In this document: positions 17,984 through 63,227 of the stretch, piece by piece
Layout of the letters: the number at the start of each line of letters is the position of its first letter
How positions within the stretch are numbered: position 1 is the first letter of the stretch
Origin: a virus
Strand: one strand, 5' to 3'
DNA length: 64,000 bases
IMG/VR virus record: IMGVR_UViG_3300037993_001242
Coordinates: 1 to 64,000 of that record
Notes under the pieces: generated by a model
What the model was told of the DNA's origin: nothing
Databases searched by the model: none
What the model saw: the letters and a program-made list of their open reading frames with translations, nothing else
Position numbers and translations under genes: made by a program

Positions 17984-17986
17984 TCG

Positions 17987-18229: not shown

Positions 18230-18267
18230 AATTTTATCGGTTTTTTAACCTGACATAACTACACGCG

Positions 18268-18576: not shown

Positions 18577-18577
18577 A

Positions 18578-19119: not shown

Positions 19120-19122
19120 ACT

Positions 19123-19350: not shown

Positions 19351-19353
19351 AGT

Positions 19354-49382: not shown

Positions 49383-49946
49383 TCAGCCCCGGCCAAAAAG
49401 GAACGGCTTCCAGTCCTCGTGCAGCGGACGAATCCGCGTGCAGGCCGGAACCGACTTCGGGCGAAACGGCTGCCGCCGGAGCTTCAGGCCCGCCTCCTGC
49501 GGCGTCTTGTTGCCCTTCCGGTGGTTCAAGTCCTTCCGACTCCAAGAAACGTTGTCCCACGCGTTCCGGCCACCCCGGCTGCGGGGAATGACGTGATCGA
49601 TGGTACCGTCGGGCGCGTATTCGCCCGTGTACTGGCAAATGAAACCGTCCCGTTCGCCGACGCCCCGCCGGTTGAACTTGGGCACCCGCTTGGGCATCTG
49701 GGCGTAGCTGGACTTGCAAATGACCGTGGGCACCCGGATGGGGCCATGGATCGTCCGCAGGAACCGGTCGCCATCGCGAATGGGCAGCACGGCCCACTCC
49801 GACCACGGCACGGCGCGCATCTCGCCCATCTCAATGCCCGTGGCGACGCCGCGCACCATGTCGCACATGGCCGTCTGGACGTTCGTCTCGTCAATGGCCT
49901 GCCACAGCCGGTTGACCACAAGCACTTTTTGTTTCAGCAGTTTCAT
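49383..49946 (-). CDS. HNH endonuclease (McrA-like) with N-terminal extension
   Basis: VLVVN...RVPTVI...RDGFICQYTG...TIDHVIPRSRGG..AWDN...NHRKGNKTP. Confidence 0.88.
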   Translation of the reverse strand: MKLLKQKVLVVNRLWQAIDETNVQTAMCDMVRGVATGIEMGEMRAVPWSEWAVLPIRDGDRFLRTIHGPIRVPTVICKSSYAQMPKRVPKFNRRGVGERDGFICQYTGEYAPDGTIDHVIPRSRGGRNAWDNVSWSRKDLNHRKGNKTPQEAGLKLRRQPFRPKSVPACTRIRPLHEDWKPFLFGRG

Positions 49947-50369: not shown

Positions 50370-50443
50370 TGGCACCGGTGGCCCGAATCGGACGGGAACT
50401 AAGCAGTCCAAAGCTGCCTGTGCTGCCATTACACCACACCGGT
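50370..50443 (-). tRNA. tRNA-Gln(UUG)
   Basis: Cloverleaf, loop CUUUGGA, encoded CCA, T loop UCCGAUU. Confidence 0.9.
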
Positions 50444-50449
50444 ATAAAT

Positions 50450-50525
50450 TGGTACCTCCGGTGGGGCATGATCCCACAACTCCCGCATTAAAAGTGCGGT
50501 ACTCTACCAATTGAGTTACGGAGGT
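50450..50525 (-). tRNA. tRNA-Lys(UUU)
   Basis: Loop CUUUUAA, CCA; T loop AUCAUGC. Confidence 0.9.
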
Positions 50526-50531
50526 ATGAAA

Positions 50532-50615
50532 TGGTCGGCGCGGGGAGAATTGGACTCCCAAGGCTCACTCCCTCTCAAGGAGGCCGGTCTGCCATTCCCG
50601 GTAAACCACGCGCCG
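50532..50615 (-). tRNA. tRNA-Leu(GAG), atypical fold
   Basis: Loop UUGAGAG, A73-CCA; long acceptor-D linker, short variable region. Confidence 0.8.
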
Positions 50616-50616
50616 T

Positions 50617-50692
50617 TGGTTGGCCCGGTGGGGTACAATCCCACGACCTGACGATTATGAGTCGACTGCTCTATCAACTGAGCTACGGGCCA
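50617..50692 (-). tRNA. tRNA(CAU), Ile2-like
   Basis: Loop CUCAUAA; GGCCCG acceptor and CGA-CUCAUAA-UCG resemble Ile2; Met not excluded. Confidence 0.8.
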
Positions 50693-50858
50693 CTCTTGAA
50701 ATTTTCCAGCCTTTGCGTTTGGCGTACAGGTATACATCGTCGTAGGACTTGCCCACCATCCAATGAATGATCGGGGCCGCTCGCGTGCAAATCAGCAGGC
50801 TGCCTTCAAATTCGGCTCCAGCGCAAAAATAACCGCTGTCGAATTGCAGCATGAACAT
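50655..50858 (-). CDS. small phage protein (FCAG...AAPIIHWM.G...RKGW)
   Basis: 67 aa; 3' end reads into the tRNA gene. Confidence 0.5.
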   Translation of the reverse strand: MFMLQFDSGYFCAGAEFEGSLLICTRAAPIIHWMVGKSYDDVYLYAKRKGWKISRVARSSVDRAVDS

Positions 50859-50862
50859 AAAA

Positions 50863-50952
50863 TGGCGGAGGGTGCAGGCTTCGATCCTGCGCAGGTGTTA
50901 CCCCGACTTCTGGTTAGCAACCAGATACTTTACCAGACTCAGTCAACCCTCC
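50863..50952 (-). tRNA. tRNA-Ser(GCU)
   Basis: Class II with long variable arm, G73-CCA. Confidence 0.92.
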
Positions 50953-51263
50953 AAATACACTTCAAAACCACGACGCTCACCGTCCTCAACCCAGATGCCG
51001 TTGATGATGATTTCCTTGCCGATATTTTTTTGCGTCACTTTTTCCAGTTCGCCGTCTTCGCTCCCGACGTATTCCCATTTGCCGTGTCCGGCACCGGGCC
51101 ACAACTGCGCTTTATAGCGTCGGGGGCCACGGGTGCGTTCGTCCAGCTTGTCGTTGAAAGTGATGGTGACGCCGCTCGGCAAGTTTTCCGCCGTCTGCAA
51201 AAAGATAATCTCGTCGGGCCGCTTGTTGTTCAGGTCTTTGAATGTGATGGTGTTCATGCTCAT
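50943..51263 (-). CDS. hypothetical protein
   Basis: Start reassigned to 51263. Confidence 0.5.
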   Translation of the reverse strand: MSMNTITFKDLNNKRPDEIIFLQTAENLPSGVTITFNDKLDERTRGPRRYKAQLWPGAGHGKWEYVGSEDGELEKVTQKNIGKEIIINGIWVEDGERRGFEVYLEG

Positions 51264-51282
51264 GTTCCCAAGAACACGATTT

Positions 51283-51546
51283 TCAAATTTTGAACGGATG
51301 CAGCGGCGCGCCTTGTGCCATGCAATCATGCGCCCAATTTTGCGTATAGTCACAAACCGGACACACCCAACCTTTTTCTGTGGCGATTAAAATCCCGTGA
51401 TCGCCTTCATGATGTTCTTCAGCGTATTTGTGGTGGGCGTCATCGTTGCGGTTGCTACAGGTGAAGGGATGCACCCAGTCACACTGCTGCCACGCATTCA
51501 AACCCTTTACTTGCTGTTTATCCCATGGCGCGTAAATTTTGCCCAT
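51283..51546 (-). CDS. small Cys/His phage protein
   Basis: HPFTC...LIAT..GWVCPVCDYTQNWAH. Confidence 0.6.
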   Translation of the reverse strand: MGKIYAPWDKQQVKGLNAWQQCDWVHPFTCSNRNDDAHHKYAEEHHEGDHGILIATEKGWVCPVCDYTQNWAHDCMAQGAPLHPFKI

Positions 51547-51550
51547 AAGA

Positions 51551-51847
51551 TCATCGGGTTACCCAAAGCCCCATTCGCTCACAATGACGTTCGTTCAACG
51601 GAAACGGCCCCGTCCAGCCAACCTGTTTCAAATCCGAAAGAATATGCTGCCGTGCAGCTTCAGCGGCCTTCGGCCCCCACAGGTGCGCTACTTCGGCGAT
51701 CCCGGCTTCATGATGGCGTTTACGCCGGTGAGCAACGCCGCCACAGCCGGGCAGATCGTGGCAGGCATCCAACCACACGTGGACTTCGCGAAAACCTTGA
51801 CCATACGTGCTGATCGATTCAGCGCAATGTTCTTCCAAAGTTGGCAT
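51551..51847 (-). CDS. His-rich DUF6915-like protein
   Basis: EHC..S...EVHVWLD...HRRKRHHEAGI...QHILSDL. Confidence 0.55.
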   Translation of the reverse strand: MPTLEEHCAESISTYGQGFREVHVWLDACHDLPGCGGVAHRRKRHHEAGIAEVAHLWGPKAAEAARQHILSDLKQVGWTGPFPLNERHCERMGLWVTR

Positions 51848-51850
51848 AAA

Positions 51851-52078
51851 TTAAGAATACCGGTCGGGCAGACGGGCGCGCCAGTTGTCCTCCCAGTTTG
51901 CTGCTGCTTCAAATTGAGCGCGCACTTCTTCCAAAGTGGGCGGTGGTAAATTGCGCAGGTTTTCCATGCGTTGTTTCAGCCATAACGGAGCACCGAGACC
52001 GTCATCATAGTCACCGGTGCTGAGCGCTGTCAGCGCACAATGCTTAAAATCTTCATGTGTGCCTTCTTCAATTATCAT
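51851..52078 (-). CDS. hypothetical protein
   Basis: 75 aa ORF. Confidence 0.45.
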   Translation of the reverse strand: MIIEEGTHEDFKHCALTALSTGDYDDGLGAPLWLKQRMENLRNLPPPTLEEVRAQFEAAANWEDNWRARLPDRYS

Positions 52079-52080
52079 CG

Positions 52081-52118
52081 AAATAAAAGCGGCTGGACGG
52101 AAATATCCATCCAGCCGC
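52081..52118 (-). terminator. terminator after Ro60
   Basis: GCGGCTGGATGGA-TATT-TCCGTCCAGCCGC-TTTTATTT. Confidence 0.85.
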
Positions 52119-52132
52119 CGTGATTGTCTACG

Positions 52133-53848
52133 CTAATCTTCGGCTTCGTCGGCAGCAACCTTGCGGTCGCCCCGGATGAAGTCGGCGATTACCGGCGGAG
52201 CCGACGCGTCGAAACCGACCACGTCCATGCCCCACTTGTCCTCCGGGTCGTTGACCGTGAAGTCGTTGGCGCAGGTACCCACGAACACTGACCGGGTATC
52301 CGGCACGAACTTTTCACGGTACTCCCGCAGGCGCAGAGTTGGATGCGGGCCTTGGTTGACCTCGCCGTCGGTCATAACGATCAGACCGCCGATCTTCAGA
52401 CGGTTTTGCAGTGCGTACTCGATTGCCAAGCTGATGTTGGTCGAACCGAAGTTGTTCACCTGTGCCCGACGGCACGCCGTTTCCAGCGTCATGCCCTTGC
52501 GGATGCCAAGCTCGCGGAAGGTATCCGCGAATCCGAAGATATGGCATTCCGGCTCGACGCTGGCGTGAACCAGCGACAGGGCGGCGACGGCCTCACACGA
52601 AGACAGGGGAGTTCCTGCCATCGCCGAGGACATCGAACCGGACACGTCCAGCGCGATCAACAGCGGCTTGCCGCACGGTTCAACGTTCGGGAACGCCGCG
52701 TAAAAGGCTTCGTCCAGCGCCGTCATGATTGACGGAACCGGCGTCCAGCTTAGCTTACCCTTGTCACCATGGCCTTGACCGTAAATCTTGGTCGCGATCA
52801 AGACCTGCATCGGGTGAACGCGTGACTTCTTCAGGAACGCGCCGTCCTGCAACCGCTTCTGGACGAGCTTGGTGGCTTCGCCCAGCGGCTTCAGGAGACC
52901 GAGGCTGGTCATCTTGCCAAGATTACGGATCGTCGCCGTCAACGGCATCTTCTGCAACAGGGCTTCCCAGACCGCGAGGCTGTTGAGCTTCTCGGTCGGT
53001 ACGGCCTCACGCGGCAGGTTGTGCTCGGTGATCAGCTTGACCAGCGCCTTTTCGTCGGCAGTCTTGGCTTCCTCGAACGCGCCGATGATGTCCGGCAGAT
53101 ACTTTTTGACGGAAGGATACTTCCGAATACGCGGGATGTCCGGTGCCATTGACTTCGGCAGGTTGGGAAACTTTCGGGTGACCTCGCGGGCACCCAGCGC
53201 GTCCTTGCCGCCGATGATCCAGCGGAAGACGGCCTGCTGTGCCTTGACCTCGGTGACCGGGTGGGCCACGCGAAGCACGTCACGAGCCGACCAGCCGTCG
53301 CGCTGCTGATACTTGACGACCTGCGCCGCCAAACGGTCAGCGGGCATGTCCGTGAACCAGCGGGCGATAGCGCGCCGGAAACCAGAGCCGCCGCCCCGCA
53401 TCGCCGAACAGTACTGCATGAAGTGGTACAGGTGCGTACCAATCCGGCAGACCTTCGGCAGCGCGGCATAAGCTGCCTGCCGGGCTTCCGCGTCACCGTG
53501 GGTGGCGACCAGCGCCAGTGCAAAAATGGCCGGGTCGTTCTTGTAGGCGCGTCCCTTGACGGACACATCTACAATCTCCTTGACCGTCCGCACACCGCTG
53601 GCCTTGATACACTGCAACACCGCGTCGTGGCCCTGCTTGAGCAAGTCCTTTTCGTCGATGTAATAGGTGCCGCCTTCGGTACCGAGAATCAAAAACCGCG
53701 CCAGCTTGTCCCAGATGCTGACCTTCCAGACGTACGCGCCGTCCGAGTCCTGAACCTGATTCTTGCCCGGCAACGGAGTGTATACAGAGGTCGTGCGCGA
53801 ACGCTTGGCTGACCGGGTGTCGAACTGCTTGGTGCTGATGAGTGCCAT
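52133..53848 (-). CDS. rsr: Ro60 / TROVE-vWA RNA-binding protein
   Basis: LARFLILGTEGGTYY, YQQRDGWSARDVLRVAHP, MPLTATIRNLGKMT, vWA MIDAS ALDVSGSM, VMTDGE, DVVGFD. Confidence 0.97.
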   Translation of the reverse strand: MALISTKQFDTRSAKRSRTTSVYTPLPGKNQVQDSDGAYVWKVSIWDKLARFLILGTEGGTYYIDEKDLLKQGHDAVLQCIKASGVRTVKEIVDVSVKGRAYKNDPAIFALALVATHGDAEARQAAYAALPKVCRIGTHLYHFMQYCSAMRGGGSGFRRAIARWFTDMPADRLAAQVVKYQQRDGWSARDVLRVAHPVTEVKAQQAVFRWIIGGKDALGAREVTRKFPNLPKSMAPDIPRIRKYPSVKKYLPDIIGAFEEAKTADEKALVKLITEHNLPREAVPTEKLNSLAVWEALLQKMPLTATIRNLGKMTSLGLLKPLGEATKLVQKRLQDGAFLKKSRVHPMQVLIATKIYGQGHGDKGKLSWTPVPSIMTALDEAFYAAFPNVEPCGKPLLIALDVSGSMSSAMAGTPLSSCEAVAALSLVHASVEPECHIFGFADTFRELGIRKGMTLETACRRAQVNNFGSTNISLAIEYALQNRLKIGGLIVMTDGEVNQGPHPTLRLREYREKFVPDTRSVFVGTCANDFTVNDPEDKWGMDVVGFDASAPPVIADFIRGDRKVAADEAED

Positions 53849-53940
53849 ATCCTTGGAATGACAATCACACTCCAACTACGATGTGTTTTCGGGTTTTCAC
53901 CGTTGGCCCATGCCATGGGCCTGATTCTGTTTTTGTTGGA

Positions 53941-53963
53941 CGCAGGCAAGTTGGCGGCCTGCG
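53941..53963 (-). promoter_or_regulatory. minimal Ro-binding-site hairpin in the Ro60 leader
   Basis: CGCAGG-C(bulge)-CG-ccaacu-UG-CCUGCG reproduces the bulged-C helix of the Y RNAs. Confidence 0.55.
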
Positions 53964-53992
53964 AATGTCTACATTGCTGAGAACTGCATTTT

Positions 53993-54367
53993 TTAAGATT
54001 TGTTTACGAAAAAATTACAGGTTGACGTTGGCTCAACCCTGAACCGGTGTAAAAGGCATCTTGGCGGAAACCGATGCCAACCTTGTGCTTTTTTATAATA
54101 CACACAACAAATACATCCTAGTACGTCGCCCGGTGCCCGTTTTCTACTGGAACTAAGATAACCAACTTCTTCCTGTTGCCCGCGTTTGAACAATCTTTTG
54201 ACTGTGCCGACTGACCGCTGTTGAATTTTGGCTATCTTTACCCACGAAACTCCGGTTCTGCGAAGCTCGATAATGTAGGCCCAGCGCCGCCGCATCATTT
54301 TTCGGCCATTTTCAGGGGAAAGAATGCGCAGAACTTCTCGTTTGCTGACAACGTCTGGATCAAACAT
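53993..54367 (-). CDS. HTH protein with Cys-rich tail, between Y RNA and Ro60
   Basis: ELRRTGVSWVKIAKIQQRSVGTVKRL; CICC...C. Confidence 0.6.
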   Translation of the reverse strand: MFDPDVVSKREVLRILSPENGRKMMRRRWAYIIELRRTGVSWVKIAKIQQRSVGTVKRLFKRGQQEEVGYLSSSRKRAPGDVLGCICCVYYKKAQGWHRFPPRCLLHRFRVEPTSTCNFFVNKS

Positions 54368-54380
54368 GCAGTAAATAAAA

Positions 54381-54517
54381 GCGGGCAAGGGTTTGGGTCG
54401 GAGATGGCTTTCGCCAAACCACTGCTCTGCCAATTGAGCTACCCCGGCATTTGCGCCGGAGGCTGGAATCGAACCAGCAACCAACGGTTTTATGATAACC
54501 AACCACAGTCGGCCCGC
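54381..54517 (-). ncRNA. yrlA: Y RNA, YrlA type (Ro stem plus permuted tRNA-like domain)
   Basis: GCGGGCCGA/UUGCCCGC bulged-C stem; T arm GCUGG-UUCGAUU-CCAGC, closed acceptor CUCCGGC-gcaaau-GCCGGGG, D arm GCUC-AAUUGGCA-GAGC in permuted order. Confidence 0.9.
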
Positions 54518-54523
54518 TAAAGT

Positions 54524-54835
54524 TTATGGCCCGCGCAGGCGGTTTAACCGCCAATCAGTTGGTGTCGAATCCGCAATCTCTTCACCGCTGACTGTGCTGA
54601 TCGTGCCGTCTTCGTTATGCACGGTTAAAATTCTATTTTCGTAATCCCACTCCCAGCTTTCATCCCAATTACCGGTAGCACTACTGCTATCCCTGACCCA
54701 ACGCGCAATGCCGTCCAATTCAACCGCATGACTTGGCATCTGATTGTCCAGATGCTGAAGATAATCCTTCGGTCGAATCACATCAGGATCATCTTCCAGC
54801 AAAAAATCAACAAGCTGTTTTGGTGCCAAACCCAC
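54524..54835 (-). CDS. tagged hypothetical protein (APKQLVDFLLEDDPDVIRPKDYL)
   Basis: Shared tag; GTAGTTA 4 nt upstream. Confidence 0.7.
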   Translation of the reverse strand: MGLAPKQLVDFLLEDDPDVIRPKDYLQHLDNQMPSHAVELDGIARWVRDSSSATGNWDESWEWDYENRILTVHNEDGTISTVSGEEIADSTPTDWRLNRLRGP

Positions 54836-54850
54836 GCCGTAACTACTAAA

Positions 54851-54935
54851 GGCACAGGCGGGGCGTTCTCATGGGGGTGGGAGCCACCACGCCCGAATCT
54901 CAGTTCCACCCTGAACTGCTTTCAATACCTGTGCC
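54851..54935 (-). ncRNA. unclassified structured RNA A (85 nt)
   Basis: Terminal stem GGCACAGG/CCUGUGCC enclosing two hairpins; 5 nt after the tRNA-Phe CCA. Confidence 0.55.
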
Positions 54936-54940
54936 AAAAA

Positions 54941-55017
54941 TGGTGCCAAGGGCTGGTTTCGATCCAGCGACACCGACCTCTTCAGGGTCGTGCTCTACCA
55001 ATCTGAGCTACCTTGGC
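54941..55017 (-). tRNA. tRNA-Phe(GAA)
   Basis: Loop CUGAAGA, CCA; T loop AUCGAAA. Confidence 0.92.
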
Positions 55018-55019
55018 AA

Positions 55020-55265
55020 TGGTGCTGTCTTGGAACCTTCAGCAGTGGGTCGCAGTTCCGCCGTTGCTTAAATAAGCCGCAGTACTAACGCTAATGAGCG
55101 TCTGGAACACACTGCGACCCCCAGTCACGCTATTGACGACAACTTGTACTTGTCTCCCACAACCGGGTCAGCGCATTCCGCTCAAGATGGTATTGGTATC
55201 AAGCCGTGGTAGTTTACGTGATTTTCCCACACTTACGGGCAGATTTTACGATCTGCAACAGCACC
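55020..55265 (-). ncRNA. unclassified structured RNA B (~246 nt)
   Basis: Terminal stem GGUGCUGU/ACAGCACC, GGGUCGCAGU/ACUGCGACCC and several hairpins; no ORF in the track. Confidence 0.6.
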
Positions 55266-55274
55266 AAAAATAAC

Positions 55275-55342
55275 GTCCGGGAAGCCCTCAGAAAGGTCGG
55301 TGCGAACGACGCACCGTGATGTTAAAAACGAGCCACCCGGAC
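55275..55342 (-). ncRNA. unclassified structured RNA C (68 nt)
   Basis: GUCCGGG/CCCGGAC closing stem, inner CGGUGCG-ucguu-CGCACCG; 3 nt after the tmRNA CCA. Confidence 0.45.
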
Positions 55343-55345
55343 ACA

Positions 55346-55771
55346 TGGTGGAGGCGGCGAGAGTTGAACTCGCGTCTTTGACTCCGTTGCATGTTGCCAC
55401 TACACGCTTATCCCGTTTTGTACAAGCTCAGCCAGTTGGGCATCTATGTGAAAAAATCTGAGCAGGTTCGGTTGATCCAACCGTAGAAGCGCCGACATTG
55501 CTCGGCACTCACACGATCCTGCTGCATCGCTCGACCCGCCGTAGCAGGCATCCAGCGGCGAACGGTGTGGCGCTTTAGGCCACAGCAAGTTCGGCATTCA
55601 GGACGGCATCAGGGTTGGCGAAAATCGCTTCCGCCTGAGCCAGCAAGCCTGCCGGACAATCATTTGCTTCGTCAGCATTTGAGTTTTGATCCGAGTTTTT
55701 AGCGAGGCCAACGAATCATCCTCGGCGTGCAACAGCATACTTCAGTTTCAAATCGAAACCAGTACGCCCCC
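55346..55771 (-). ncRNA. ssrA: tmRNA, tag ADEANDCPAGLLAQAEAIFANPDAVLNAELAVA*
   Basis: 5' GGGGGCGUACUGGUUUCGA, 3' GCGAG-UUCAACU-CUCGC-CGCCUCC-ACCA, G3-U70 pair; tag frame 55676-55575. Confidence 0.95.
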
Positions 55772-55790
55772 ATTTCAAAGATCAAAAAAC

Positions 55791-55852
55791 GATGGGCAAG
55801 GTGGTGCAGGAAGGGTTGTCCAAGGATGATAACCTTCCAACTTCGGCCCATC
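55791..55852 (-). ncRNA. short Y RNA 2 (62 nt)
   Basis: GAUGGGCCGA/UUGCCCAUC bulged-C stem; GGUUAUCA 9 nt after CCG. Confidence 0.8.
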
Positions 55853-55855
55853 AAT

Positions 55856-55950
55856 TCGACCCGGCCCCGTCGTCAGTTCGTGCCGGAACGCACAAGAATG
55901 TCCATGCCCGGCTGATCAATTCCGGGCGCTGACCCAGTTGTACCTGTGCC
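55856..55950 (-). ncRNA. unclassified structured RNA D
   Basis: Starts GGCACAGGUA like RNA A; GUCAG/CUGAC junction with GCCCGG/CCGGGC and GUGC/GCAC hairpins; 4 nt after the fMet CCA. Confidence 0.5.
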
Positions 55951-55954
55951 AAAT

Positions 55955-56031
55955 TGGTTGCGGGGGAAGGATTCCAACCTCCGACCTCTTGGTTATGAGC
56001 CAAGCGCGCTTGCGGACTGCGCCACCCCGCG
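55955..56031 (-). tRNA. initiator tRNA-fMet(CAU)
   Basis: C1:A72 mismatch, CGCGGGG acceptor, loop CUCAUAA. Confidence 0.88.
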
Positions 56032-56049
56032 ATCAAAAAGAACACGATA

Positions 56050-56078
56050 TTTGTAATCCTGCTGATTAAAAACGTCAA
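56050..56078 (-). promoter_or_regulatory. sigma70-type promoter for the fMet/Y RNA/tmRNA run
   Basis: TTGACG-17 nt-TACAAA about 18 nt upstream of fMet. Confidence 0.55.
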
Positions 56079-56097
56079 CAAAATTTTCACAGGAAAT

Positions 56098-56181
56098 TGG
56101 TCGGCGCGAAGGGACTTGAACCCCCAAGGATCACTCATTTTGAATGAGGTCAGTCTGCCATTCCTGATGAACCACGCGCCG
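56098..56181 (-). tRNA. tRNA-Leu(CAA), atypical fold
   Basis: Loop UUCAAAA; linker UGGUUCAU, variable GAUCCUU. Confidence 0.85.
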
Positions 56182-56185
56182 AAAA

Positions 56186-56494
56186 TCAATCTTCGCCGGT
56201 GACCTGCCGCAAAAGTTTTTTGGCGTAGTCCGCCGCGATCCACACTTCCGCTTCGTCGTCGTCGATGTAAACTTCAAAACCAACGTCGTTTTTATTGCAG
56301 TAGTCGTAGACCGCTTTAACCTCTGGATTGGTTTGGGCAATGTATTCGGCTACATAATCGGCAGCATAATTCCCGGCAAATCCGATTTTGCGCAAATCGA
56401 TTAGTTGGTCATACGTGGCCTGTTGAAACCACGGTTCAGCATCGAAGCTAACCTCCATGGCATTGTCATCGGATATGATTGTCGCCGGGATCAT
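56186..56494 (-). CDS. hypothetical phage protein
   Basis: MIPATIISDDNAMEVSFDAEPWF... Confidence 0.6.
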   Translation of the reverse strand: MIPATIISDDNAMEVSFDAEPWFQQATYDQLIDLRKIGFAGNYAADYVAEYIAQTNPEVKAVYDYCNKNDVGFEVYIDDDEAEVWIAADYAKKLLRQVTGED

Positions 56495-56506
56495 CGTCTT
56501 AAATAC

Positions 56507-56591
56507 TGGTCGCCGGAGCGGGACTCGAACCCGCAAGGCTGCTGGATTTTAAGTCCAGTGGGTCTGCCAATTCCACCTTAACCACCCGGCG
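56507..56591 (-). tRNA. tRNA-Leu(UAA), atypical fold
   Basis: Loop CUUAAAA; linker UGGUUAAG, variable CAGCCUU. Confidence 0.85.
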
Positions 56592-56632
56592 AATACTCCA
56601 AAAAGTTTCTGATGAACGGAAGTAGTTAAGCC

Positions 56633-57646
56633 GTGAGAACAAAACACAAGATTCTGTTCATCCTGAAACGGCATCACTATGGGCCGTCCTACGGATTGCT
56701 GAATTCCTGCCAGTTCGTCGCCGAAGCTCTCCGCAGGGAAGGCGTCGAGACCAAAATCATCGAAGTTGTAGACAACAACAGCATTGACCGTGAAGTCACG
56801 CGCTATTTGCCGACGCACGTAATCATCGAAGCTTTGTGGGTTGTTCCCCAAAAATTTCCCGTCTTGCTCCAACTTCATCCCGCCATCCAGTGGGCCGTTC
56901 GCATTCACAGTAACGCACCGTTTCTTTCCGGCGAAGGCATGGCGCTGGAATGGCTGTACGGCTACGGCAAGGTGGCCAAAACTTTCAGTAATTTCCATGT
57001 CGGAGCCAACAGCCGCAAAATGTCCACGGAACTTGATCTGGCGTTGGGTATGGACTCCCTTTATCTGCCAAACATTTACACCGACAGCCTGACCCAGAAA
57101 CGACTGCCTCCGCCATTTGAAAAATCACATCAGGCGCACGTGAACATCGGCTGCTTTGGCGCGATCCGACCGCTCAAAAATCACTTGGAGCAGGCGCTGG
57201 CCGCGATTATTTTTGCCCGTTCAATTGGGCGGCCATTACGATTCCACATCAACGCCACCCGTGTTGAACAAAATTCCGATCCGATTTTGCGCAACTTGAT
57301 CAGCCTGTTCGCCCACGGGCCAAATCATTTGGTACAGCATCCGTGGATGCCGCACGATCAATTCATCGAAGTGCTGCGCCGCATGGATTATGGAATGCAG
57401 GTCAGTTTCTCGGAAACCTTCAACATCGTGGCCGCCGACTTCGTATACAACGAAATCCCGTTCGTTGGATCAAAGGAAATTGAATGGCTGGCATCCCACA
57501 GTATTGCCGATCCAACCAACTGGGAAAGCATTGTTGACCGGCTAAACCAAAGCTACTCGCACCACATCATTCACGAAAACAAACACGCCCTGCATTCTTT
57601 CAGTATTCAATCACTGAAAGAATGGCTGGAATACATCGACGATTAA
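56633..57646 (+). CDS. GT-B glycosyltransferase (GT4-like)
   Basis: GCFGAIRPLKNH, MQVSFSETFNIVAAD; GTAGTTA 4 nt upstream. Confidence 0.82.
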   Translation: MRTKHKILFILKRHHYGPSYGLLNSCQFVAEALRREGVETKIIEVVDNNSIDREVTRYLPTHVIIEALWVVPQKFPVLLQLHPAIQWAVRIHSNAPFLSGEGMALEWLYGYGKVAKTFSNFHVGANSRKMSTELDLALGMDSLYLPNIYTDSLTQKRLPPPFEKSHQAHVNIGCFGAIRPLKNHLEQALAAIIFARSIGRPLRFHINATRVEQNSDPILRNLISLFAHGPNHLVQHPWMPHDQFIEVLRRMDYGMQVSFSETFNIVAADFVYNEIPFVGSKEIEWLASHSIADPTNWESIVDRLNQSYSHHIIHENKHALHSFSIQSLKEWLEYIDD

Positions 57647-57650
57647 AATT

Positions 57651-58445
57651 ATGGCCTTTAGACACAACACCAAATACGGCTGGCGGCGCGACCGCCCGGA
57701 CATCCGCGACTTCAAATTCGAGCGCATGGTCACGCTCAAAACCCTGCGCACCACGGCGCTTCCGGCGCACGTTTATCTGCGCCGTTTTTGCTCACAAATT
57801 ACAGATCAGGGCCAACTTGGGTCTTGCACTGCCAACGCATTGACCAATCTGCTGGAATACAACGAATGTGCCAACGGACGCGGCGGTAAACAGTTCAAGG
57901 ATTTGAGCCGTCTTTTTGTTTATTACAACGAACGGACACTGGAAGGTACTGCTGGTCAGGACGCCGGAGCCGAACTGCGTGATGGCATCAAATCATTGGC
58001 CACCTACGGGGTCTGCCCGGAAACCGAATGGCCTTACGTCGAAAATAAATTTGCCATGCCTCCCACGACACAATGCTACGGCGACGCCATTCCTTACAAA
58101 ATCCACAGCTACTACACCCTGAACACCCTTACTGACATGCGCGTTAGCTTGGCTAACGGCAATCCCTTCGTCTTCGGATTCACTGTATACGAATCGTTTG
58201 AATCTGACGAAGTCGCCAGCACCGGAATCGTCCAGATGCCCAAAGCGGGCGAACAAGTTTTAGGTGGTCATGCGGTCATGGCCATGGGCTACAACGACGC
58301 CCAGCAGCGGTTCCTCGTCAAAAACTCGTGGGGCAAAGACTGGGGTCTCAAAGGCGAATTGGGCGGCTATTTCACCTTGCCCTACGGCTATTTTACCGAC
58401 CCAAACCTGTCGTCCGACTTTTGGACGGTGGTCAAGGACATCTGA
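57651..58445 (+). CDS. papain-like C1 family cysteine peptidase
   Basis: DQGQLGSCTANA, GGHAV, KNSWG catalytic motifs. Confidence 0.95.
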   Translation: MAFRHNTKYGWRRDRPDIRDFKFERMVTLKTLRTTALPAHVYLRRFCSQITDQGQLGSCTANALTNLLEYNECANGRGGKQFKDLSRLFVYYNERTLEGTAGQDAGAELRDGIKSLATYGVCPETEWPYVENKFAMPPTTQCYGDAIPYKIHSYYTLNTLTDMRVSLANGNPFVFGFTVYESFESDEVASTGIVQMPKAGEQVLGGHAVMAMGYNDAQQRFLVKNSWGKDWGLKGELGGYFTLPYGYFTDPNLSSDFWTVVKDI

Positions 58446-58448
58446 AAT

Positions 58449-58533
58449 TGGTGCCGGTGAAGGGACTCGAACCCCCAAGGCTGCGGCGTCCTAAGCGCCG
58501 TGGGTCTGCCAATTCCCCGTTAACCACACCGGC
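58449..58533 (-). tRNA. tRNA-Leu(UAG), atypical fold
   Basis: Loop CUUAGGA; linker UGGUUAAC, variable CAGCCUU. Confidence 0.85.
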
Positions 58534-58539
58534 ATAAAT

Positions 58540-58623
58540 TGGTCGCGCTGAGTGGACTTGAACCACCAAGGATCACCGCCTCTGAAGCGGGCCGGTCTGC
58601 CATTCCCGGTAAACCACAGCGCG
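58540..58623 (-). tRNA. tRNA-Leu(CAG), atypical fold
   Basis: Loop UUCAGAG; linker UGGUUUAC, variable GAUCCUU. Confidence 0.85.
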
Positions 58624-58635
58624 TAATTAAATCAG

Positions 58636-59244
58636 ATGAAACGAAATCCAAAGCCGCTGCCAGATCGTGGCGATCCGGCGCATGATCCGCATCTCCCGCA
58701 CACGACGCGGTATCAAAAACGCGACATTGAGCACCTGATCCCACCAGAAGCCAATGCCGTTATCGAGCAGCAGTGGCCGGAGGTTATTCGTACGTTCCAG
58801 CAATACGATGAAGGCGCTGGAATGCTGATGCTTTTTGGCCTCGTCCGCGACGCGTGCAAAGCAGCAAAGTGGCCTGACACCATGGCCTATCAGATGCGCG
58901 ATTATCTGCTCACCAAGCTCAATGCCGAAAAAGTCAAAACATACACCGGGAGCGATGACCGCCCCGGTGACTGGAAGGTTTTCAACATGAAAGAGTCCGC
59001 CGAACAAATTGTCGACCGTCTGCTGGAATACGGCCTACCCAATACTCCCACAAGCGCCGATCTTAAAATCGAAAATCACGGCAGCATCGTTTTGGTTCGG
59101 CCCTTAACCGACGCCGGTAAAGAAGGGCTGCGAAGAACCGCCCCTGAAGATGCACAATTCATGGGCGACGCCATGGCGGTCGAACCCCGCTACGTCGAAG
59201 GCGTCACTGACGCCGCGCAAGAGGATGGTCTGACCGTTTCGTAG
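58636..59244 (+). CDS. two-part protein with internal tag (ESAEQIVDRLLEYG)
   Basis: GTAATTA 6 nt upstream. Confidence 0.7.
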   Translation: MKRNPKPLPDRGDPAHDPHLPHTTRYQKRDIEHLIPPEANAVIEQQWPEVIRTFQQYDEGAGMLMLFGLVRDACKAAKWPDTMAYQMRDYLLTKLNAEKVKTYTGSDDRPGDWKVFNMKESAEQIVDRLLEYGLPNTPTSADLKIENHGSIVLVRPLTDAGKEGLRRTAPEDAQFMGDAMAVEPRYVEGVTDAAQEDGLTVS

Positions 59245-59255
59245 TTAACATCGGT

Positions 59256-59789
59256 ATGAACATCGACGAACGAGAAGCCAAACTGAGCACCGGCAAACGC
59301 TTTGCCAAACTGGAGCGGCCATCGACCCGCAAAAAAAGCACCCAAGACACAGGTGCAAGCTGGATGCCACACGGCGGCCAAAAAACATCCAGCAAAGAAC
59401 GCCTTCAAAAAAGTGGCGCAAGCTGGCTACCACATCACGAATCTGCCGCCCAGATCGTGGCCCGCCTGCTGGAATATGAAAATGTTGCCAGCACGGGAGG
59501 GCCGGGCAACACCGGTACTGGTTACAACCCGGAAACTCTGCACCAAACCATTCGCTATTTGATGCAGACGCTCGGTATCGACTATCCAGAAGCGCGTGAT
59601 ATTGCCATGCAGCATCACGATCCCAAAGCGGGCGGTACACGTGAACCAATGCAGGCGGCTGAACCTGAAGCGGCGGAACCACCGCCTGAACGACCGTTGA
59701 TGACGCAACGGCCTGAAACTCATTGCGGTCGCTGTGGATCGAGACATCACCACACCGCCAATTGCCACTTGAGCGGCATACCGCTGTAA
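59256..59789 (+). CDS. protein with duplicated GASW(M/L)PH and internal tag (ESAAQIVARLLEYE), C-terminal Zn knuckle
   Basis: CGRCGSRHHHTANC; GTAGTTA 8 nt upstream. Confidence 0.7.
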   Translation: MNIDEREAKLSTGKRFAKLERPSTRKKSTQDTGASWMPHGGQKTSSKERLQKSGASWLPHHESAAQIVARLLEYENVASTGGPGNTGTGYNPETLHQTIRYLMQTLGIDYPEARDIAMQHHDPKAGGTREPMQAAEPEAAEPPPERPLMTQRPETHCGRCGSRHHHTANCHLSGIPL

Positions 59790-59791
59790 AA

Positions 59792-59866
59792 TGGTACGCC
59801 CGACTGGACTTTAACCAGTAACCTGTGGTTCCGAAGACCACTGCTCTATCATTGAGCTACGAGCGC
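59792..59866 (-). tRNA. tRNA-Arg(UCG)
   Basis: Loop CUUCGGA; T loop UUAAAGU. Confidence 0.88.
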
Positions 59867-60088
59867 ATGAAAGCCGAACAAATCGTTAACATCCTTCTGG
59901 AAGCCGGGCCAGATGAAGTCCCGCCCAAGGACTATCTTAAAAAAGTCCCTCCGCCTCCACGTTGTCCGATGTGTGACAGCTTTAACGTCAAGGTCGTGCG
60001 CCGCCCGGAAGACAATTCCATCGATTACGCGGAATGTTTGGACTGCGGCGAAATCGGGCTGTCTTTCTTTAGCGACGAGAATAGTTAA
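59867..60088 (+). CDS. tagged zinc-ribbon protein (MKAEQIVNILLEAGPDEVPPKDYL)
   Basis: CPMC...CLDC. Confidence 0.75.
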   Translation: MKAEQIVNILLEAGPDEVPPKDYLKKVPPPPRCPMCDSFNVKVVRRPEDNSIDYAECLDCGEIGLSFFSDENS

Positions 60089-60092
60089 AGTG

Positions 60093-60362
60093 ATGAATGC
60101 AAAACAGATTGTAACTGTGCTTCTTGAACTGGAGCACCCCATTGCCCGTTGCCCCGTTTGCAGCGGAAACAGTATGCACGAAATCATGGGTCTTGAACAC
60201 GGCTGGCGTTGTAATATCTGCGGACACGAATTCCAGTGGCCACCACCAGAGCATCCTCCTTTGGCTGGAGAAAAAACCAAATCAAAAATCCCACCCAAAG
60301 CCATGATGATGGCCGTCACTGGCGGTTCGGACTTCCCGATTGCAGGCGGCGGTCAGGGCTGA
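60093..60362 (+). CDS. tagged zinc-ribbon protein (MNAKQIVTVLLELE)
   Basis: CPVC...CNIC; ATAGTTA 5 nt upstream. Confidence 0.75.
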   Translation: MNAKQIVTVLLELEHPIARCPVCSGNSMHEIMGLEHGWRCNICGHEFQWPPPEHPPLAGEKTKSKIPPKAMMMAVTGGSDFPIAGGGQG

Positions 60363-60376
60363 CGTAGTTAAGATAT

Positions 60377-60790
60377 ATGGCAGACAGCACAACAACCAAC
60401 GGTGTGGTTCTTCAAACGCCTTACGCGTACCTGAAGAATTTCGTAAGAGTGCGCCCGTTTACGGTATCAGTGATCGGCGTCAATCCGCTGCTCAATCAAA
60501 ACAGCGACAATTTGCGAGTCTTCCCCACCAACTACCAGAGCCAACTATACGGTGTCGCCAATGGCATCATTGTATACGTCGGTGACAAAATTCATTTCGA
60601 CCTTCAAGCCCCTTGCAACGATGCCACGGCCCCTGCCTTTGACCTCATTCAAGTCAACCCATCGACTGGTGTCGAGACGACGCAGGAAACGGCGCGGTTT
60701 ACCGCCAAATGGCAGCGCAGCATGGTCATCACCGTCACGGCCATCAACGCCTCAACGGGAGCCATTACGTACACTGTCGCTTATCGGTAA
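60377..60790 (+). CDS. beta-rich hypothetical, probable virion protein
   Basis: 137 aa; GTAGTTA 6 nt upstream. Confidence 0.65.
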   Translation: MADSTTTNGVVLQTPYAYLKNFVRVRPFTVSVIGVNPLLNQNSDNLRVFPTNYQSQLYGVANGIIVYVGDKIHFDLQAPCNDATAPAFDLIQVNPSTGVETTQETARFTAKWQRSMVITVTAINASTGAITYTVAYR

Positions 60791-60791
60791 A

Positions 60792-60868
60792 TGGTGCGGC
60801 GAGCAGGCTTCGATCCTGCGACTTCCACGATGTCAACGTGGCGATCTACCGGGCTGATCTACCGCCGC
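60792..60868 (-). tRNA. tRNA-Val(GAC)
   Basis: Loop UUGACAU; T loop AUCGAAG. Confidence 0.92.
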
Positions 60869-60872
60869 AAAA

Positions 60873-60948
60873 TGGAGCCAGCAGAGGGCTTCGATCCCCC
60901 GACATTCAGTTTACAGAACTGACGCTCTACCAACTGAGCTATGCTGGC
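60873..60948 (-). tRNA. tRNA-Thr(UGU) with C33
   Basis: Stem UCAGU/ACUGA, loop UCUGUAA. Confidence 0.82.
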
Positions 60949-60954
60949 CTAAAT

Positions 60955-61030
60955 TGGTGCGTTGGGTGGGCAACGATCCCACAATCTTCCGGGTAAGGGC
61001 CGGGTGCTCTGCCAATTGAGCTACCAACGC
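60955..61030 (-). tRNA. tRNA-Lys(CUU) with C33
   Basis: Stem CCCGG/CCGGA, loop CCCUUAC. Confidence 0.78.
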
Positions 61031-61035
61031 AAAAA

Positions 61036-61111
61036 TGGTCGCTGTGGGCGGGTACGATCCGCCGACCTTTTCCTTATGAGGGAACTGCGCTACCAACTGC
61101 GCCACACAGCG
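61036..61111 (-). tRNA. tRNA-Met(CAU), elongator-like
   Basis: Loop CUCAUAA, paired C1-G72. Confidence 0.82.
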
Positions 61112-61118
61112 TGAAAAA

Positions 61119-61685
61119 TCAATTTATAGCGCTAAAAGCTTCGCTTAACTGCTCTCCAAGTTCCGGCGTGATTCTGTTCGCCGGAACAAACGCCTGTACG
61201 GCATAGCGCCCATTAAAAACATGCGGGCCAACCGTTATAGAAAATTCAGCTTGCGGAAACCGAGTTTCCAGCGCGCTCATTCTGTGCCAAAGGTCTCGTT
61301 CAATTTCCTCCGTCGTCACGGGGCCTTCCCACGCGTCGCGGATGGCCTGTTCATCGTCGCTTCCCTCTGGATTAAGAAATTTTTCTTCAAAAAGAACACC
61401 ATACTGCCCGTCCATTATCCGCTGTACGATGAAATTGTTTTCCCAGCCACCAATACACCGCTGTAGACGCTGAATGATATTTTTTACTTTTCGGGATGCA
61501 CCGGGAATTTTCGGCACACCTTCGCCGGATTCCAAATCTTGACCCCAACGATCACTGAGATACTTAAATTCCTCGGCGCGCTTAATCTTGTCCCGCCAAC
61601 CGGGCAGCCGCATCACTTCCGCTTTGGCGGGCAGTTCATCCGGCCCAACCTCAAGCAGTCGATTCACTAACGCCTTTGCATTCAT
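61119..61685 (-). CDS. tagged hypothetical protein (MNAKALVNRLLEVGPDELPAK)
   Basis: Shared tag, 188 aa. Confidence 0.72.
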   Translation of the reverse strand: MNAKALVNRLLEVGPDELPAKAEVMRLPGWRDKIKRAEEFKYLSDRWGQDLESGEGVPKIPGASRKVKNIIQRLQRCIGGWENNFIVQRIMDGQYGVLFEEKFLNPEGSDDEQAIRDAWEGPVTTEEIERDLWHRMSALETRFPQAEFSITVGPHVFNGRYAVQAFVPANRITPELGEQLSEAFSAIN

Positions 61686-61689
61686 AACA

Positions 61690-61765
<76 letters not shown>

Positions 61766-61769
61766 AAAA

Positions 61770-61845
61770 TGGAGCGAACGACGGGAAACGATCCCGCAAC
61801 ATCCGCGTTGGAAGCGCGGTGCTCTGCCAATTGAGCTACGTTCGC
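61770..61845 (-). tRNA. tRNA-Gly(UCC)
   Basis: Loop CUUCCAA, U73. Confidence 0.92.
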
Positions 61846-61857
61846 AAAAATTCAAGA

Positions 61858-62214
61858 TCATGGATGGCCTTCGTTGGCCTTTTTGGCGGCAGCTTCACGC
61901 TGCTGTTGTTCCACCCATTGCTCCCATTCTATAAAACTTGGGATATGACCAATGATTTGATCACCATTTCTCAGCATACCGTGACTAAAATCTTTGGTCA
62001 CCGTTTTATAACCAACGGACGGCGTGGGCTGGCCAGTGAGGCTCATATCCGCCGGATAATAACCTGTAAAGACACCGTCAGTGACTGAACCATCGGGATG
62101 CTGAATTTTGATCGGAATTTCAAGATGCTTAATGCGTCCATATTCCAACAGCAAATCCACGATGTTGCGCGCATTTTCTTGGATGCGGGCGTTTTTTTCA
62201 GCACTGTCACTCAT
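61858..62214 (-). CDS. tagged hypothetical protein (QENARNIVDLLLEYG)
   Basis: Start 62214 with GTAATTA 5 nt upstream. Confidence 0.68.
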   Translation of the reverse strand: MSDSAEKNARIQENARNIVDLLLEYGRIKHLEIPIKIQHPDGSVTDGVFTGYYPADMSLTGQPTPSVGYKTVTKDFSHGMLRNGDQIIGHIPSFIEWEQWVEQQQREAAAKKANEGHP

Positions 62215-62236
62215 TACTTTAATTACCAAAGCAAAT

Positions 62237-62312
62237 TGGAGACCAACCAGAGACTCGAACTCTGCTAAATCGGTTTTGCAGACCGTTCCGTTCACCCGCT
62301 CGGTCGTTGGCC
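62237..62312 (-). tRNA. tRNA-Cys(GCA)
   Basis: Loop CUGCAAA, U73. Confidence 0.88.
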
Positions 62313-62740
62313 GTTATTGGAGAAATTATGTTCTCCAATGTATGAAATTGAAAGTAAAAATCTTAAAATTAAAAACGCAAAGGAATTTGCAACAAAGAGA
62401 TAGCGGAAAAACTCGGATGCAGTCCAACAACCATAACGTATCATTGCAACGAAGCTTATCGTAAACGGCACACTTTTAACAGGCAACGACGACGTTCTGA
62501 AATAAAAACCCAGATTGTAAATCAATTTGGTGGCAAGTGCAAAATTTGTGGTTACGACCGTTGCGTCGATGCCTTGGAGTTTCACCATACCAAAGATAAA
62601 GACTCGGTTATTTTACTAAAAGGAAGCGCGGGTTTATCAAGATTACCATTCAAAATCTTAATGGCTGAACTCAAAAAGTGTATACTTTTGTGCTGTCGCT
62701 GCCATCGTGAAGTCCATGCCGGTGTTGTTTCTATTTAAAT

Positions 62741-62815
62741 TGGGGTGACGTACGAGATTCGGACTCGTGCTTTTTGTTCCACAAACAAAGGTGCTACCAC
62801 TACACCAACGCCACC
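62741..62815 (-). tRNA. tRNA-His(GUG)
   Basis: G-1:C73, loop UUGUGGA. Confidence 0.9.
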
Positions 62816-62825
62816 ATTAAAGAAC

Positions 62826-62901
62826 TGGAGCCTGTGGCCGGTGACGATCCGACAACCTGCGCATTACGAATGCGCCGCTCTGCCAATTGAGCTACACAGG
62901 C
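62826..62901 (-). tRNA. tRNA-Thr(CGU)
   Basis: Loop UUCGUAA. Confidence 0.92.
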
Positions 62902-62905
62902 AAAA

Positions 62906-62982
62906 TGGTAGGGGATGCAGCGTGACGTGCTGCGACCTCCTCGGTGTAGGCGAGGCGCTCTTGGCATCTGAGCTAATCCCCC
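62906..62982 (-). tRNA. tRNA-Val(UAC) with C33 and swapped elbow
   Basis: Loop CCUACAC; D loop GCC, T loop ACGUCAC. Confidence 0.8.
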
Positions 62983-62989
62983 GTTAAAA

Positions 62990-63066
62990 TGGCGTTCCCG
63001 ACTGGACTTTAACCAGTGGCCTCCGCCTTCGCAGAGCGGCGCTCTATACAACTGAGCTACGGGAAC
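62990..63066 (-). tRNA. tRNA-Arg(GCG)
   Basis: Loop CUGCGAA; T loop UUAAAGU. Confidence 0.85.
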
Positions 63067-63069
63067 AAA

Positions 63070-63146
63070 GTGGGCAAAAATCGTCGGAGGACATTGACAG
63101 AAACGCTTAATAGGCATTTGTTGATAACCCTCAGACAGCGGCCCAC
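63070..63146 (-). ncRNA. short Y RNA 3 (77 nt)
   Basis: GUGGGCCG/UGCCCAC stem; GGUUAUCA 9 nt after CCG; 3-4 nt spacers to the flanking tRNAs. Confidence 0.78.
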
Positions 63147-63150
63147 AAAA

Positions 63151-63227
63151 TGGTACTTCCGGCTGGAGTTTAACCAGTAACCTCTTCCTTCGGAGGGAAG
63201 CGCTCTATACAATTGAGCTACGGAAGC
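63151..63227 (-). tRNA. tRNA-Arg(CCG)
   Basis: Loop CUCCGAA; T loop UUAAACU. Confidence 0.88.

Follow-up and report, generated by a model that had tools for sequence, protein, structure and literature searches.

Candidate five-helix leucine tRNAs in a phage tRNA cluster and in mobile tRNA arrays of Verrucomicrobiota

A 2024 paper describes all known bacterial transfer RNAs (tRNAs) as canonical cloverleaves (PMC11551756). The leucine identity set of Escherichia coli comprises A73, A14, A15-U48, G18/G19-U55/C56 and U54-A58 (PMC6614811), and in Streptomyces one leucyl-tRNA synthetase (LeuRS) charges both long-arm and short-loop tRNA-Leu (PMC6614811). Small changes are known to let phage tRNAs evade host defences that target tRNAs (PMC10264068, PMC11464382, PMC11555353). 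Here we describe five tRNA-Leu genes in a stretch of virus DNA of 64,000 nucleotides (nt), hereafter the window, which is the first 64 kb of the 199,098-bp IMG/VR record IMGVR_UViG_3300037993_001242 (approximately 82% complete). In each gene a lengthened connector between the acceptor and D stems can pair with a short variable strand to give a fifth helix, and 133 distinct sequences with this layout form a family that spans 12 viral records and dozens of bacterial assemblies. With a probability of roughly 0.7, we consider these to be working leucine tRNAs of non-cloverleaf form that a host enzyme would charge and that travel on a mobile tRNA module; charging and use on the ribosome are suggested by the tRNA features that they retain.

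Anatomy of the five leucine tRNA genes

All five genes (Table 1) encode a 7-base-pair (bp) acceptor stem of standard pairs, A73 and a CCA end. The connector from the acceptor to the D stem is 8 nt long in every case and consists of U8 and seven further bases of the form GGUUNNN, six beyond the usual two: GGUUUAC in Leu-GAG, GGUUCAU in Leu-CAA, GGUUAAG in Leu-UAA, GGUUAAC in Leu-UAG and GGUUUAC in Leu-CAG. The D arm that follows has a 3-bp stem and the loop GAAU(U)GGCAGA, then base 26. This loop is almost identical to the one in the normal tRNA-Leu of the bacteria that carry the same gene family, and the window version, GAAUUGGCAGA, is the same D loop as GAAUUGGUAGA of E. coli tRNA-Leu. Anticodon loops (UUGAGAG, UUCAAAA, UUCAGAG, CUUAAAA and CUUAGGA) are 7 nt long with U33 throughout, and the T arm keeps a standard 5-bp stem and 7-nt loop, which in Leu-GAG reads UCCAAUU and so has C55.

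The variable strand is 7 nt long, follows the form N-A(G/U)CC-UU (GAGCCUU, GAUCCUU or CAGCCUU) and has no internal pairing. Set antiparallel, GGUU of the connector and AGCC of the variable strand form G:C, G:C, U:G and U:A, a 4-bp fifth helix. The D and anticodon arms lie inside this nested helix, which turns the four-way junction of the cloverleaf into two three-way junctions. U8, A14, A15 with U48, A73 and the D-loop/T-loop pairs are present in all five genes, and the elbow has G18 and G19 together with U55 or C55, and C56. The five RNAs have the ends, anticodon arm and elbow of standard tRNAs, but not the 2-nt connector or the four-helix cloverleaf. The sequence-only reading that had drawn attention to these genes gave their positions, the 8-nt connector, the 7-nt variable strand and the pairable strands, all of which we confirmed in the five genes, each on the minus strand. 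It had also set them beside a Ser tRNA with a long variable arm; such arms are indeed kept by the Ser (88–90 nt) and also the Tyr (91 nt) tRNAs of the same phage.

For the window ARAGORN reports 18 tRNAs and a transfer-messenger RNA (tmRNA), and for the full phage record 40 tRNAs; it overlooks all five Leu genes. Across the family it overlooks 125 of the 133 members, which, if the genes are active, would be a blind spot through which phage and island tRNA sets are reported without leucine. With the Rfam tRNA model (RF00005), for which the gathering score is 29 bits, four of the window genes score 35.1, 28.5, 28.2 and 26.1 bits, only Leu-UAG (35.1 bits) exceeding that score, and Leu-GAG has no match to the model at E ≤ 1.

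The 40 tRNAs reported by ARAGORN serve 19 amino acids and include a CUA suppressor; leucine is the sole amino acid absent, and the five window genes supply it. Their anticodons cover all six leucine codons, each of which the phage uses, and leucine accounts for 8.5% of the codons in phage proteins. No LeuRS was found in searches of the approximately 82% complete record with PF13603 and PF00133, so a host enzyme would have to charge the five-helix tRNAs.

Support for the fifth helix and its place in the fold

RNAalifold predicts the fifth helix unaided from the five window genes alone. To collect relatives we used a covariance model of these five genes that contained the four standard stems and no fifth helix, and so could not favour that helix in the collected alignment. 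Pairs were counted in the resulting model-made alignment, A4 (103 hits, 98 distinct sequences), which was preferred to a MAFFT alignment of the 133 sequences (A3) because the latter displaced members with a 9-nt connector by one column. Across the 98 distinct sequences the fifth helix is paired at 94.7–96.5%, and the standard stems at 92–99.9%. Its four column pairs are 9:81 (GC 80, GU 9), 11:74 (GC 81, AU 2, GU 2), 13:73 (UG 70, CG 7, GC 2, AU 1, UA 1) and 15:72 (UA 78, CG 2, GC 1).

These counts bear on whether the helix exists at all. The RNAs might instead be of a short-variable-loop type with a flexible connector, the helix remaining unformed in the folded tRNA and GGUU and AGCC being kept for tertiary or protein contacts. 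We regard this as quite improbable. In its favour are the modest covariation, the tolerance of mismatches (U.U, C.A and C.C) and the leucine-anticodon tRNAs of 75–78 nt in related arrays, whose variable loop is 5 nt long and whose connector has no extra bases, so that the helix is not indispensable. What opposes it is that double changes preserve pairing in separate variants (GACC/GGUU, GGUC/GACU, GGAU/AUCU, GGGU/ACCU and GGCC/GGCC, beside the further variant GGCU/AGCC), and that 8 cells of the helix carry double-sided changes where shuffles give 0.8, with none of 500 shuffles reaching 8. Sliding the partner strand lowers pairing to 48–64%, and the U.G to C.A change of the GGCU/AACC variant is a tolerable one for a wobble pair. 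The fifth helix is supported as real at the family level, by few covariation events. For the sequence-only reading, which had put forward this connector/variable pairing from the window genes, the family brings 95–96% pairing and compensatory changes alongside the RNAalifold prediction.

Other partners for these strands were ruled out. Single-sequence folds had offered GGUUU with AGACC of the D arm; the 3' strand of the D stem varies (CCG, CUG, CCC, GGG, UGG, GUA) while GGUU is fixed. Pairing of UGGU (nt 8–11) with the 3' ACCA end was rejected on geometry, as the length of the acceptor stem separates the two, and because it is with the variable strand that this connector strand covaries.

The elbow is also constrained. 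Covariation between bases 18 and 55 has no exceptions (A18/G55 in 72 sequences, G18/U55 in 9 and G18/C55 in 2), G19:C56 is swapped to C19:G56 in one family member, and four bases are nearly invariant across the family: U8, A14, A15 and, at the end of the variable strand, U48. As far as can be judged from sequence, the five-helix RNAs fold as tRNAs and, since the D-loop/T-loop pairs covary perfectly, probably as L-shaped ones.

Two sub-types are distinguished by the 27:43 pair. Where it is a mismatch (C.U, as in Leu-GAG and two other window genes), connector bases 5 and 6 usually pair with the first variable base and base 43, and the last connector base with base 26; the three features co-occur in 21 of 33 cases and yield a fifth helix of 6 bp, with the D and anticodon stems at 4 bp each. 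Within the window, Leu-GAG, Leu-CAA and Leu-CAG are capable of the 6-bp form, and Leu-UAA and Leu-UAG have a 4-bp helix with a 5-bp anticodon stem. A fifth base pair common to the whole family (column 17:65) was rejected, being only 36.8% paired and confined to the mismatch sub-type. In both sub-types the anticodon stem and fifth helix together make ten layers (4+6 or 5+1+4; nine in two divergent members), which equals the sum of anticodon stem, 26:44 pair and D stem in a standard tRNA.

These dimensions suggest how the fold may be arranged. We propose that the long hairpin arm was lost and that the six extra connector bases pair with the 7-nt variable strand as the 4-bp fifth helix. Because its top joins U8 and U47-U48 directly and its bottom joins the anticodon stem, the helix would occupy the usual place of the D stem in the stack on the anticodon stem. 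The short D stem, lying alongside, would then present A14, A15, G18 and G19 to their usual partners, with the L shape kept. The sequence-only reading had this helix replace the variable arm, which holds for the secondary structure; in three dimensions it does not, since a helix with both ends tied into the tRNA core is unable to project outward as a variable arm does.

A mobile tRNA module in phages and Verrucomicrobiota

Leucine anticodons occur in all 121 sequences scored with the five-helix layout (CAG 48, CAA 24, GAG 19, UAA 14, UAG 14 and AAG 2), and the layout is found in none of the hundreds of other tRNAs at the same loci. A73 is present in 132 of the 133 family members and CCA is encoded in 111. 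The sequence-only reading took A73-CCA and the leucine anticodons as arguments for function, which is plausible given that leucine is the only gap in the phage set and that the family has leucine anticodons throughout. All stems covary, with 94% of cells paired and the 7/5 split of acceptor and T stems kept across A4. Decay of ordinary Leu tRNAs into pseudogenes is the least credible of the explanations considered: gene finders do pass over the family, and degeneration is plain in a few members such as L145:7170 and L055:1153, yet the layout persists with covarying stems through all 133 sequences, viral and bacterial.

Five-helix Leu tRNAs are carried by 11 other viral records of 4.5–360 kb, one of which, L039, is a true relative of the phage, with 50–73% protein identity over many genes. 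An initial pattern scan of viral contigs with the exact D loop of the window gave 10 matches, all of them chance occurrences in coding sequence and none tRNA-like; the pattern was loosened after the L039 locus, and in that version succeeded. Megablast of the region against GenBank phages returned nothing relevant, nor did blastn of tRNA pairs against phages and plasmids, in which the sole match was a 65-nt partial one to an Enterococcus phage. DNA of the phage is present in peat and wetland metagenomes from 2017–2021, and contigs from four peat or wetland DNA runs have identical phage sequence, with no informative variants.

The bacterial scan applied one pattern to one genome for each of 185,579 species and found 86 stretches, from which we obtained 110 distinct five-helix Leu tRNAs. 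Among the matches listed, 66 of 80 stretches come from assemblies that carry a Verrucomicrobiota label (Limisphaerales, Pedosphaerales, Opitutales, Chthoniobacterales and others). A few copies come from bins that bear the label of another phylum, and some stretches are on contigs of 500–850 kb. The chromosomal genes are part of dense tRNA arrays, for which ARAGORN reports a median of 7 tRNAs per piece of at most 8 kb and a median of 1 per kb. Whole-genome searches of five array genomes found ordinary long-arm Leu tRNAs in all five, at three to five isoacceptors each. A model search of 151 sampled Verrucomicrobiota genomes scored the seed genome and no other, which hints at rarity but, given the strict filters and 30 candidates scored per genome, does not measure it.

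One array lies inside an 851-kb contig, where its neighbours are an integrase, a BsuBI/PstI restriction-modification pair, an HNH endonuclease, RtcB and AbiE modules. The HNH endonuclease is the only phage protein with homologues (40–49% identity) beside chromosomal five-helix arrays; it adjoins the array in all four chromosomal loci examined (L218:8030-8593, L219:10220-10783, L221:11235-11798 and L220:10697-11317) and may move the tRNA module. The phage cluster and a chromosomal array share the gene order Thr(cgt), His, Cys, Thr(tgt), Arg(tcg), Leu(CAG), Leu(UAA), Leu(CAA), Leu(GAG), Gln(ttg), HNH. Such a module would be common to large peat and soil phages and to integrase-bearing Verrucomicrobiota islands, and would bring a near-complete tRNA set; from this shared module only, we infer Verrucomicrobiota as the phage host.

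The five-helix design belongs to the mobile tRNA module, not to a host lineage, because it is confined to sporadic mobile arrays, normal Leu tRNAs coexist with it and the 151-genome sample shows only the seed. The lineage-wide fold envisaged in the sequence-only reading is thus not borne out. That reading had also asked whether a host chromosome has the same architecture in an already described form: the design is present in Verrucomicrobiota chromosomes, and we found no published description of it.

The neighbouring genes leave room for a role outside translation, in which the RNAs would be decoys or sponges for enzymes that attack or modify Leu tRNAs, or partners of proteins, the reshaped core being the point. 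RNA-repair and defence genes (RtcB, AbiE pairs, restriction-modification) adjoin chromosomal arrays, a Ro60-like protein and a Y-RNA-like gene lie within the phage tRNA cluster, hosts retain normal Leu tRNAs, and conservation of the helix sequence would suit a binding site. We nevertheless think such a role unlikely, as selection has kept the features needed for decoding (five leucine anticodons, a 7-nt anticodon loop, A73, CCA and, in all five window genes, U33), the anticodons remain leucine while the stems that carry them covary freely, and it is leucine alone that the ordinary tRNA set of the phage lacks.

Table 1 Leucine tRNA genes, their fifth-helix strands and other features of the window
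Feature	Position in window	Strand	Details
tRNA-Leu(GAG)	50532..50615	minus	84 nt, five-helix type
Leu-GAG fifth helix, 5' strand GGUU	50604..50607	minus	tRNA nt 9-12
Leu-GAG fifth helix, 3' strand AGCC	50562..50565	minus	tRNA nt 51-54
tRNA-Leu(CAA)	56098..56181	minus	84 nt, five-helix type; strands 56170-56173 (GGUU) and 56128-56131 (AUCC; U.U third pair)
tRNA-Leu(UAA)	56507..56591	minus	85 nt, five-helix type; strands 56580-56583 (GGUU) and 56537-56540 (AGCC)
tRNA-Leu(UAG)	58449..58533	minus	85 nt, five-helix type; strands 58522-58525 (GGUU) and 58479-58482 (AGCC)
tRNA-Leu(CAG)	58540..58623	minus	84 nt, five-helix type; strands 58612-58615 (GGUU) and 58570-58573 (AUCC; U.U third pair)
tRNA cluster, window part	50370..63227	minus	all genes on the same strand; continues to about 74.3 kb of the record
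HNH endonuclease gene	49383..49946	minus	at the edge of the tRNA cluster, adjoins tRNA-Gln(UUG)
Ro60-like protein gene	52133..53875	minus	inside the tRNA cluster; TROVE E 1e-39, Ro60 vWA E 2e-38
Weak YrlA (Y-RNA-like) match	54392..54505	minus	39.9 bits, below the 69-bit cut-off; about 500 nt from the Ro60-like gene
tmRNA	55346..55771	minus	Rfam 113.5 bits; tag peptide end ...AELAVA
Papain-family (C1) cysteine protease gene	57651..58445	plus	between Leu tRNA genes, on the opposite strand
tRNA-like gene	62910..62982	minus	overlooked by ARAGORN; Rfam 28.6 bits; anticodon loop CCUACAC, aberrant T loop ACGUCAC

In the phage cluster the Leu genes stand in line with ordinary tRNAs of the same strand, spaced by 1–6 nt from Lys, Met and each other. 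Between 50.4 and 74.3 kb of the record, 39 ARAGORN tRNAs and the five Leu genes amount to about 1.8 per kb; tRNA array units are defined by at least 20 tRNA genes at a density of at least 2 per kb (PMC4758250). Many of the ordinary tRNAs in this cluster have T loops that begin with A and not U54 (GGAUCAUGC, GGAUCGAAG, GGAUCGUUG and similar), unlike the five Leu genes, in which U54 is kept. The tRNA-like gene near the end of the window is apparently a Val-UAC tRNA with C33. Two further oddities lie in the record beyond the window: an amber-suppressor tRNA with anticodon CUA, labelled Pyl by ARAGORN (111560-111633, minus strand), and a 68-nt 'tRNA-Ser(gct)' (64447-64514, minus strand) that has its anticodon at position 27 and is seemingly without a normal D arm. 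The Ro60-like gene and YrlA-like match look like a phage Ro60/Y-RNA module, and relatives of the papain-family protease (40–57% identity) occur on about 25 other viral contigs.

The chromosomal arrays have peculiarities of their own. In array L218 (12697-13827 on the minus strand, and 16509-19716), an RtcB RNA ligase is interleaved with the tRNA genes and AbiE toxin-antitoxin genes flank them; both act on tRNA or RNA ends. Across the Verrucomicrobiota array loci L102-L187, G occupies T-loop position 55 in nearly all amino-acid types: of 402 scorable T loops, 368 read UGCRA. Within the Leu family, G55 accompanies A instead of G18, and the Leu tRNAs native to the hosts show the normal UUCRA. A second odd family consists of 45 distinct leucine-anticodon tRNAs of 75–78 nt with a 2–3-nt connector and a 5-nt variable loop. 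These short-loop tRNAs are found in the same arrays and in related phages (L218:8998-9074, L053:5154-5231 and L053:5930-6007, all on the minus strand, L077 and about 40 others), and many of their GAG members have C for U33 (loop UCGAGAG).

Charging, function and comparison with known systems

On the reading that we favour, that of working leucine tRNAs, a host LeuRS would charge the five-helix RNAs. The core and elbow contacts known to be read by bacterial LeuRS (U8, A14, A15 with U48, 18:55, 19:56 and A73) are kept, as is every element of the E. coli identity set. Attachment of a different amino acid, recoding leucine codons, has precedent in allo-tRNAs with leucine anticodons that accept serine or alanine (PMC7609411), and the body of these RNAs is unusual. 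It is nonetheless very improbable here: the RNAs have the D loop of bacterial tRNA-Leu, A73, U8:A14 and A15:U48, they offer no long arm to seryl-tRNA synthetase (SerRS), and pair 3:70 is G:C or C:G in the five window genes, with G3:U70 in none. Recoding of all six leucine codons would also harm the phage's own proteins.

SerRS and the bacterial tyrosyl-tRNA synthetase (TyrRS) use the long arm, which would explain why only leucine has been rebuilt and Ser and Tyr spared. A doubtful, though not negligible, alternative builds on this: the tRNAs would be active with a different core, two short helices standing side by side and the connector/variable helix taking the position of the D stem above the anticodon stem. 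Mobile arrays would have retained them because leucine can still be decoded while host enzymes that recognise long arms attack the Leu tRNAs of the cell itself, leucine alone being rebuilt since LeuRS is the only one of the three synthetases that needs no arm. The five-helix design may have arisen by accident, been tolerated and become fixed in a single mobile lineage, or it may keep the module's Leu tRNAs clear of host enzymes that recognise the long arm.

Several points weigh against working leucine tRNAs with a fifth helix. The third pair is U.U in Leu-CAA and Leu-CAG, which carry AUCC, and the fourth is lost (C.A, C.C or A.C) in some of the UAA members from chromosomes. The covariation events are few, at 8 cells, because the helix sequence is strongly conserved, and conservation of GGUU/AGCC could reflect a sequence-specific contact instead. 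Energy folds of single sequences recover the structure inconsistently, as is usual for tRNAs. On the side of function, E. coli LeuRS charges only long-arm tRNA-Leu (PMC6614811), so acceptance by the LeuRS of the phage host is not guaranteed; phage and islands have no strict need for the five-helix genes, because the hosts examined keep normal Leu tRNAs; and there is no RNA run among the listed runs that contain phage DNA.

If active, these tRNAs would be a natural counter-example to the canonical cloverleaf, a five-helix tRNA of bacteria and phages known in at least 133 sequence variants. They would reveal a change in the tRNA core that is tolerated by a bacterial synthetase, EF-Tu and the ribosome, provide a scaffold ready for engineered tRNAs, and make it possible to ask if mobile elements remodel entire arms of their tRNAs in order to avoid host enzymes that target tRNAs. 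A five-helix tRNA-Leu is undescribed in the 2020 review of non-canonical tRNAs (PMC7609411), in Rfam and in our full-text literature searches, as well as in the abstract of the allo-tRNA paper (PMC5389517).

Several known systems come close. The allo-tRNAs are likewise natural non-cloverleaf tRNAs of bacteria and phages found in metagenomes, some with leucine anticodons; they have 8/4 or 9/3 stems and keep a long variable arm, whereas the five-helix RNAs have 7-bp acceptor and 5-bp T stems and a change in the core (PMC5389517, PMC7609411). The sequence-only reading was right to hold the two apart. The tRNA array units, according to the abstracts of the surveys, are likewise dense and horizontally mobile tRNA blocks that serve most amino acids, in chromosomes, phages and plasmids (PMC4758250, PMC5966550); those abstracts mention no reshaped leucine tRNA, and the arrays here, unlike those they describe, belong to Verrucomicrobiota and their phages. 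Phage tRNAs that escape host defences differ from the host's in a few anticodon-loop bases at positions important to nucleases, whereas in the five-helix tRNAs a whole arm is rebuilt.

Among leucine tRNAs, the type I form (Streptomyces coelicolor tRNA-Leu(CAA), PMC6614811, and animal mitochondria) also has no long arm and coexists with long-arm Leu tRNAs. The single LeuRS of S. coelicolor charges type I tRNA-Leu, so a bacterial LeuRS can do without the hairpin. Type I is nevertheless a four-arm cloverleaf with a 2-nt connector, a variable loop of 4–5 nt and no fifth helix, in contrast to the 8-nt connector and 7-nt variable strand described here. The class II tRNA-Leu of bacteria, including that of the hosts, shares with the five-helix type the 3-bp D stem, U8, A14, A15 with U48, A73 and the leucine anticodons. 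Its overall length is also similar (84–88 nt), and the difference is therefore hidden in annotation tables. Class II tRNA-Leu has a variable hairpin of at least 10 nt that projects from the core; the five-helix type has a 7-nt region in its place, with the partner strand between U8 and the D stem, and a helix that encloses the D and anticodon arms.

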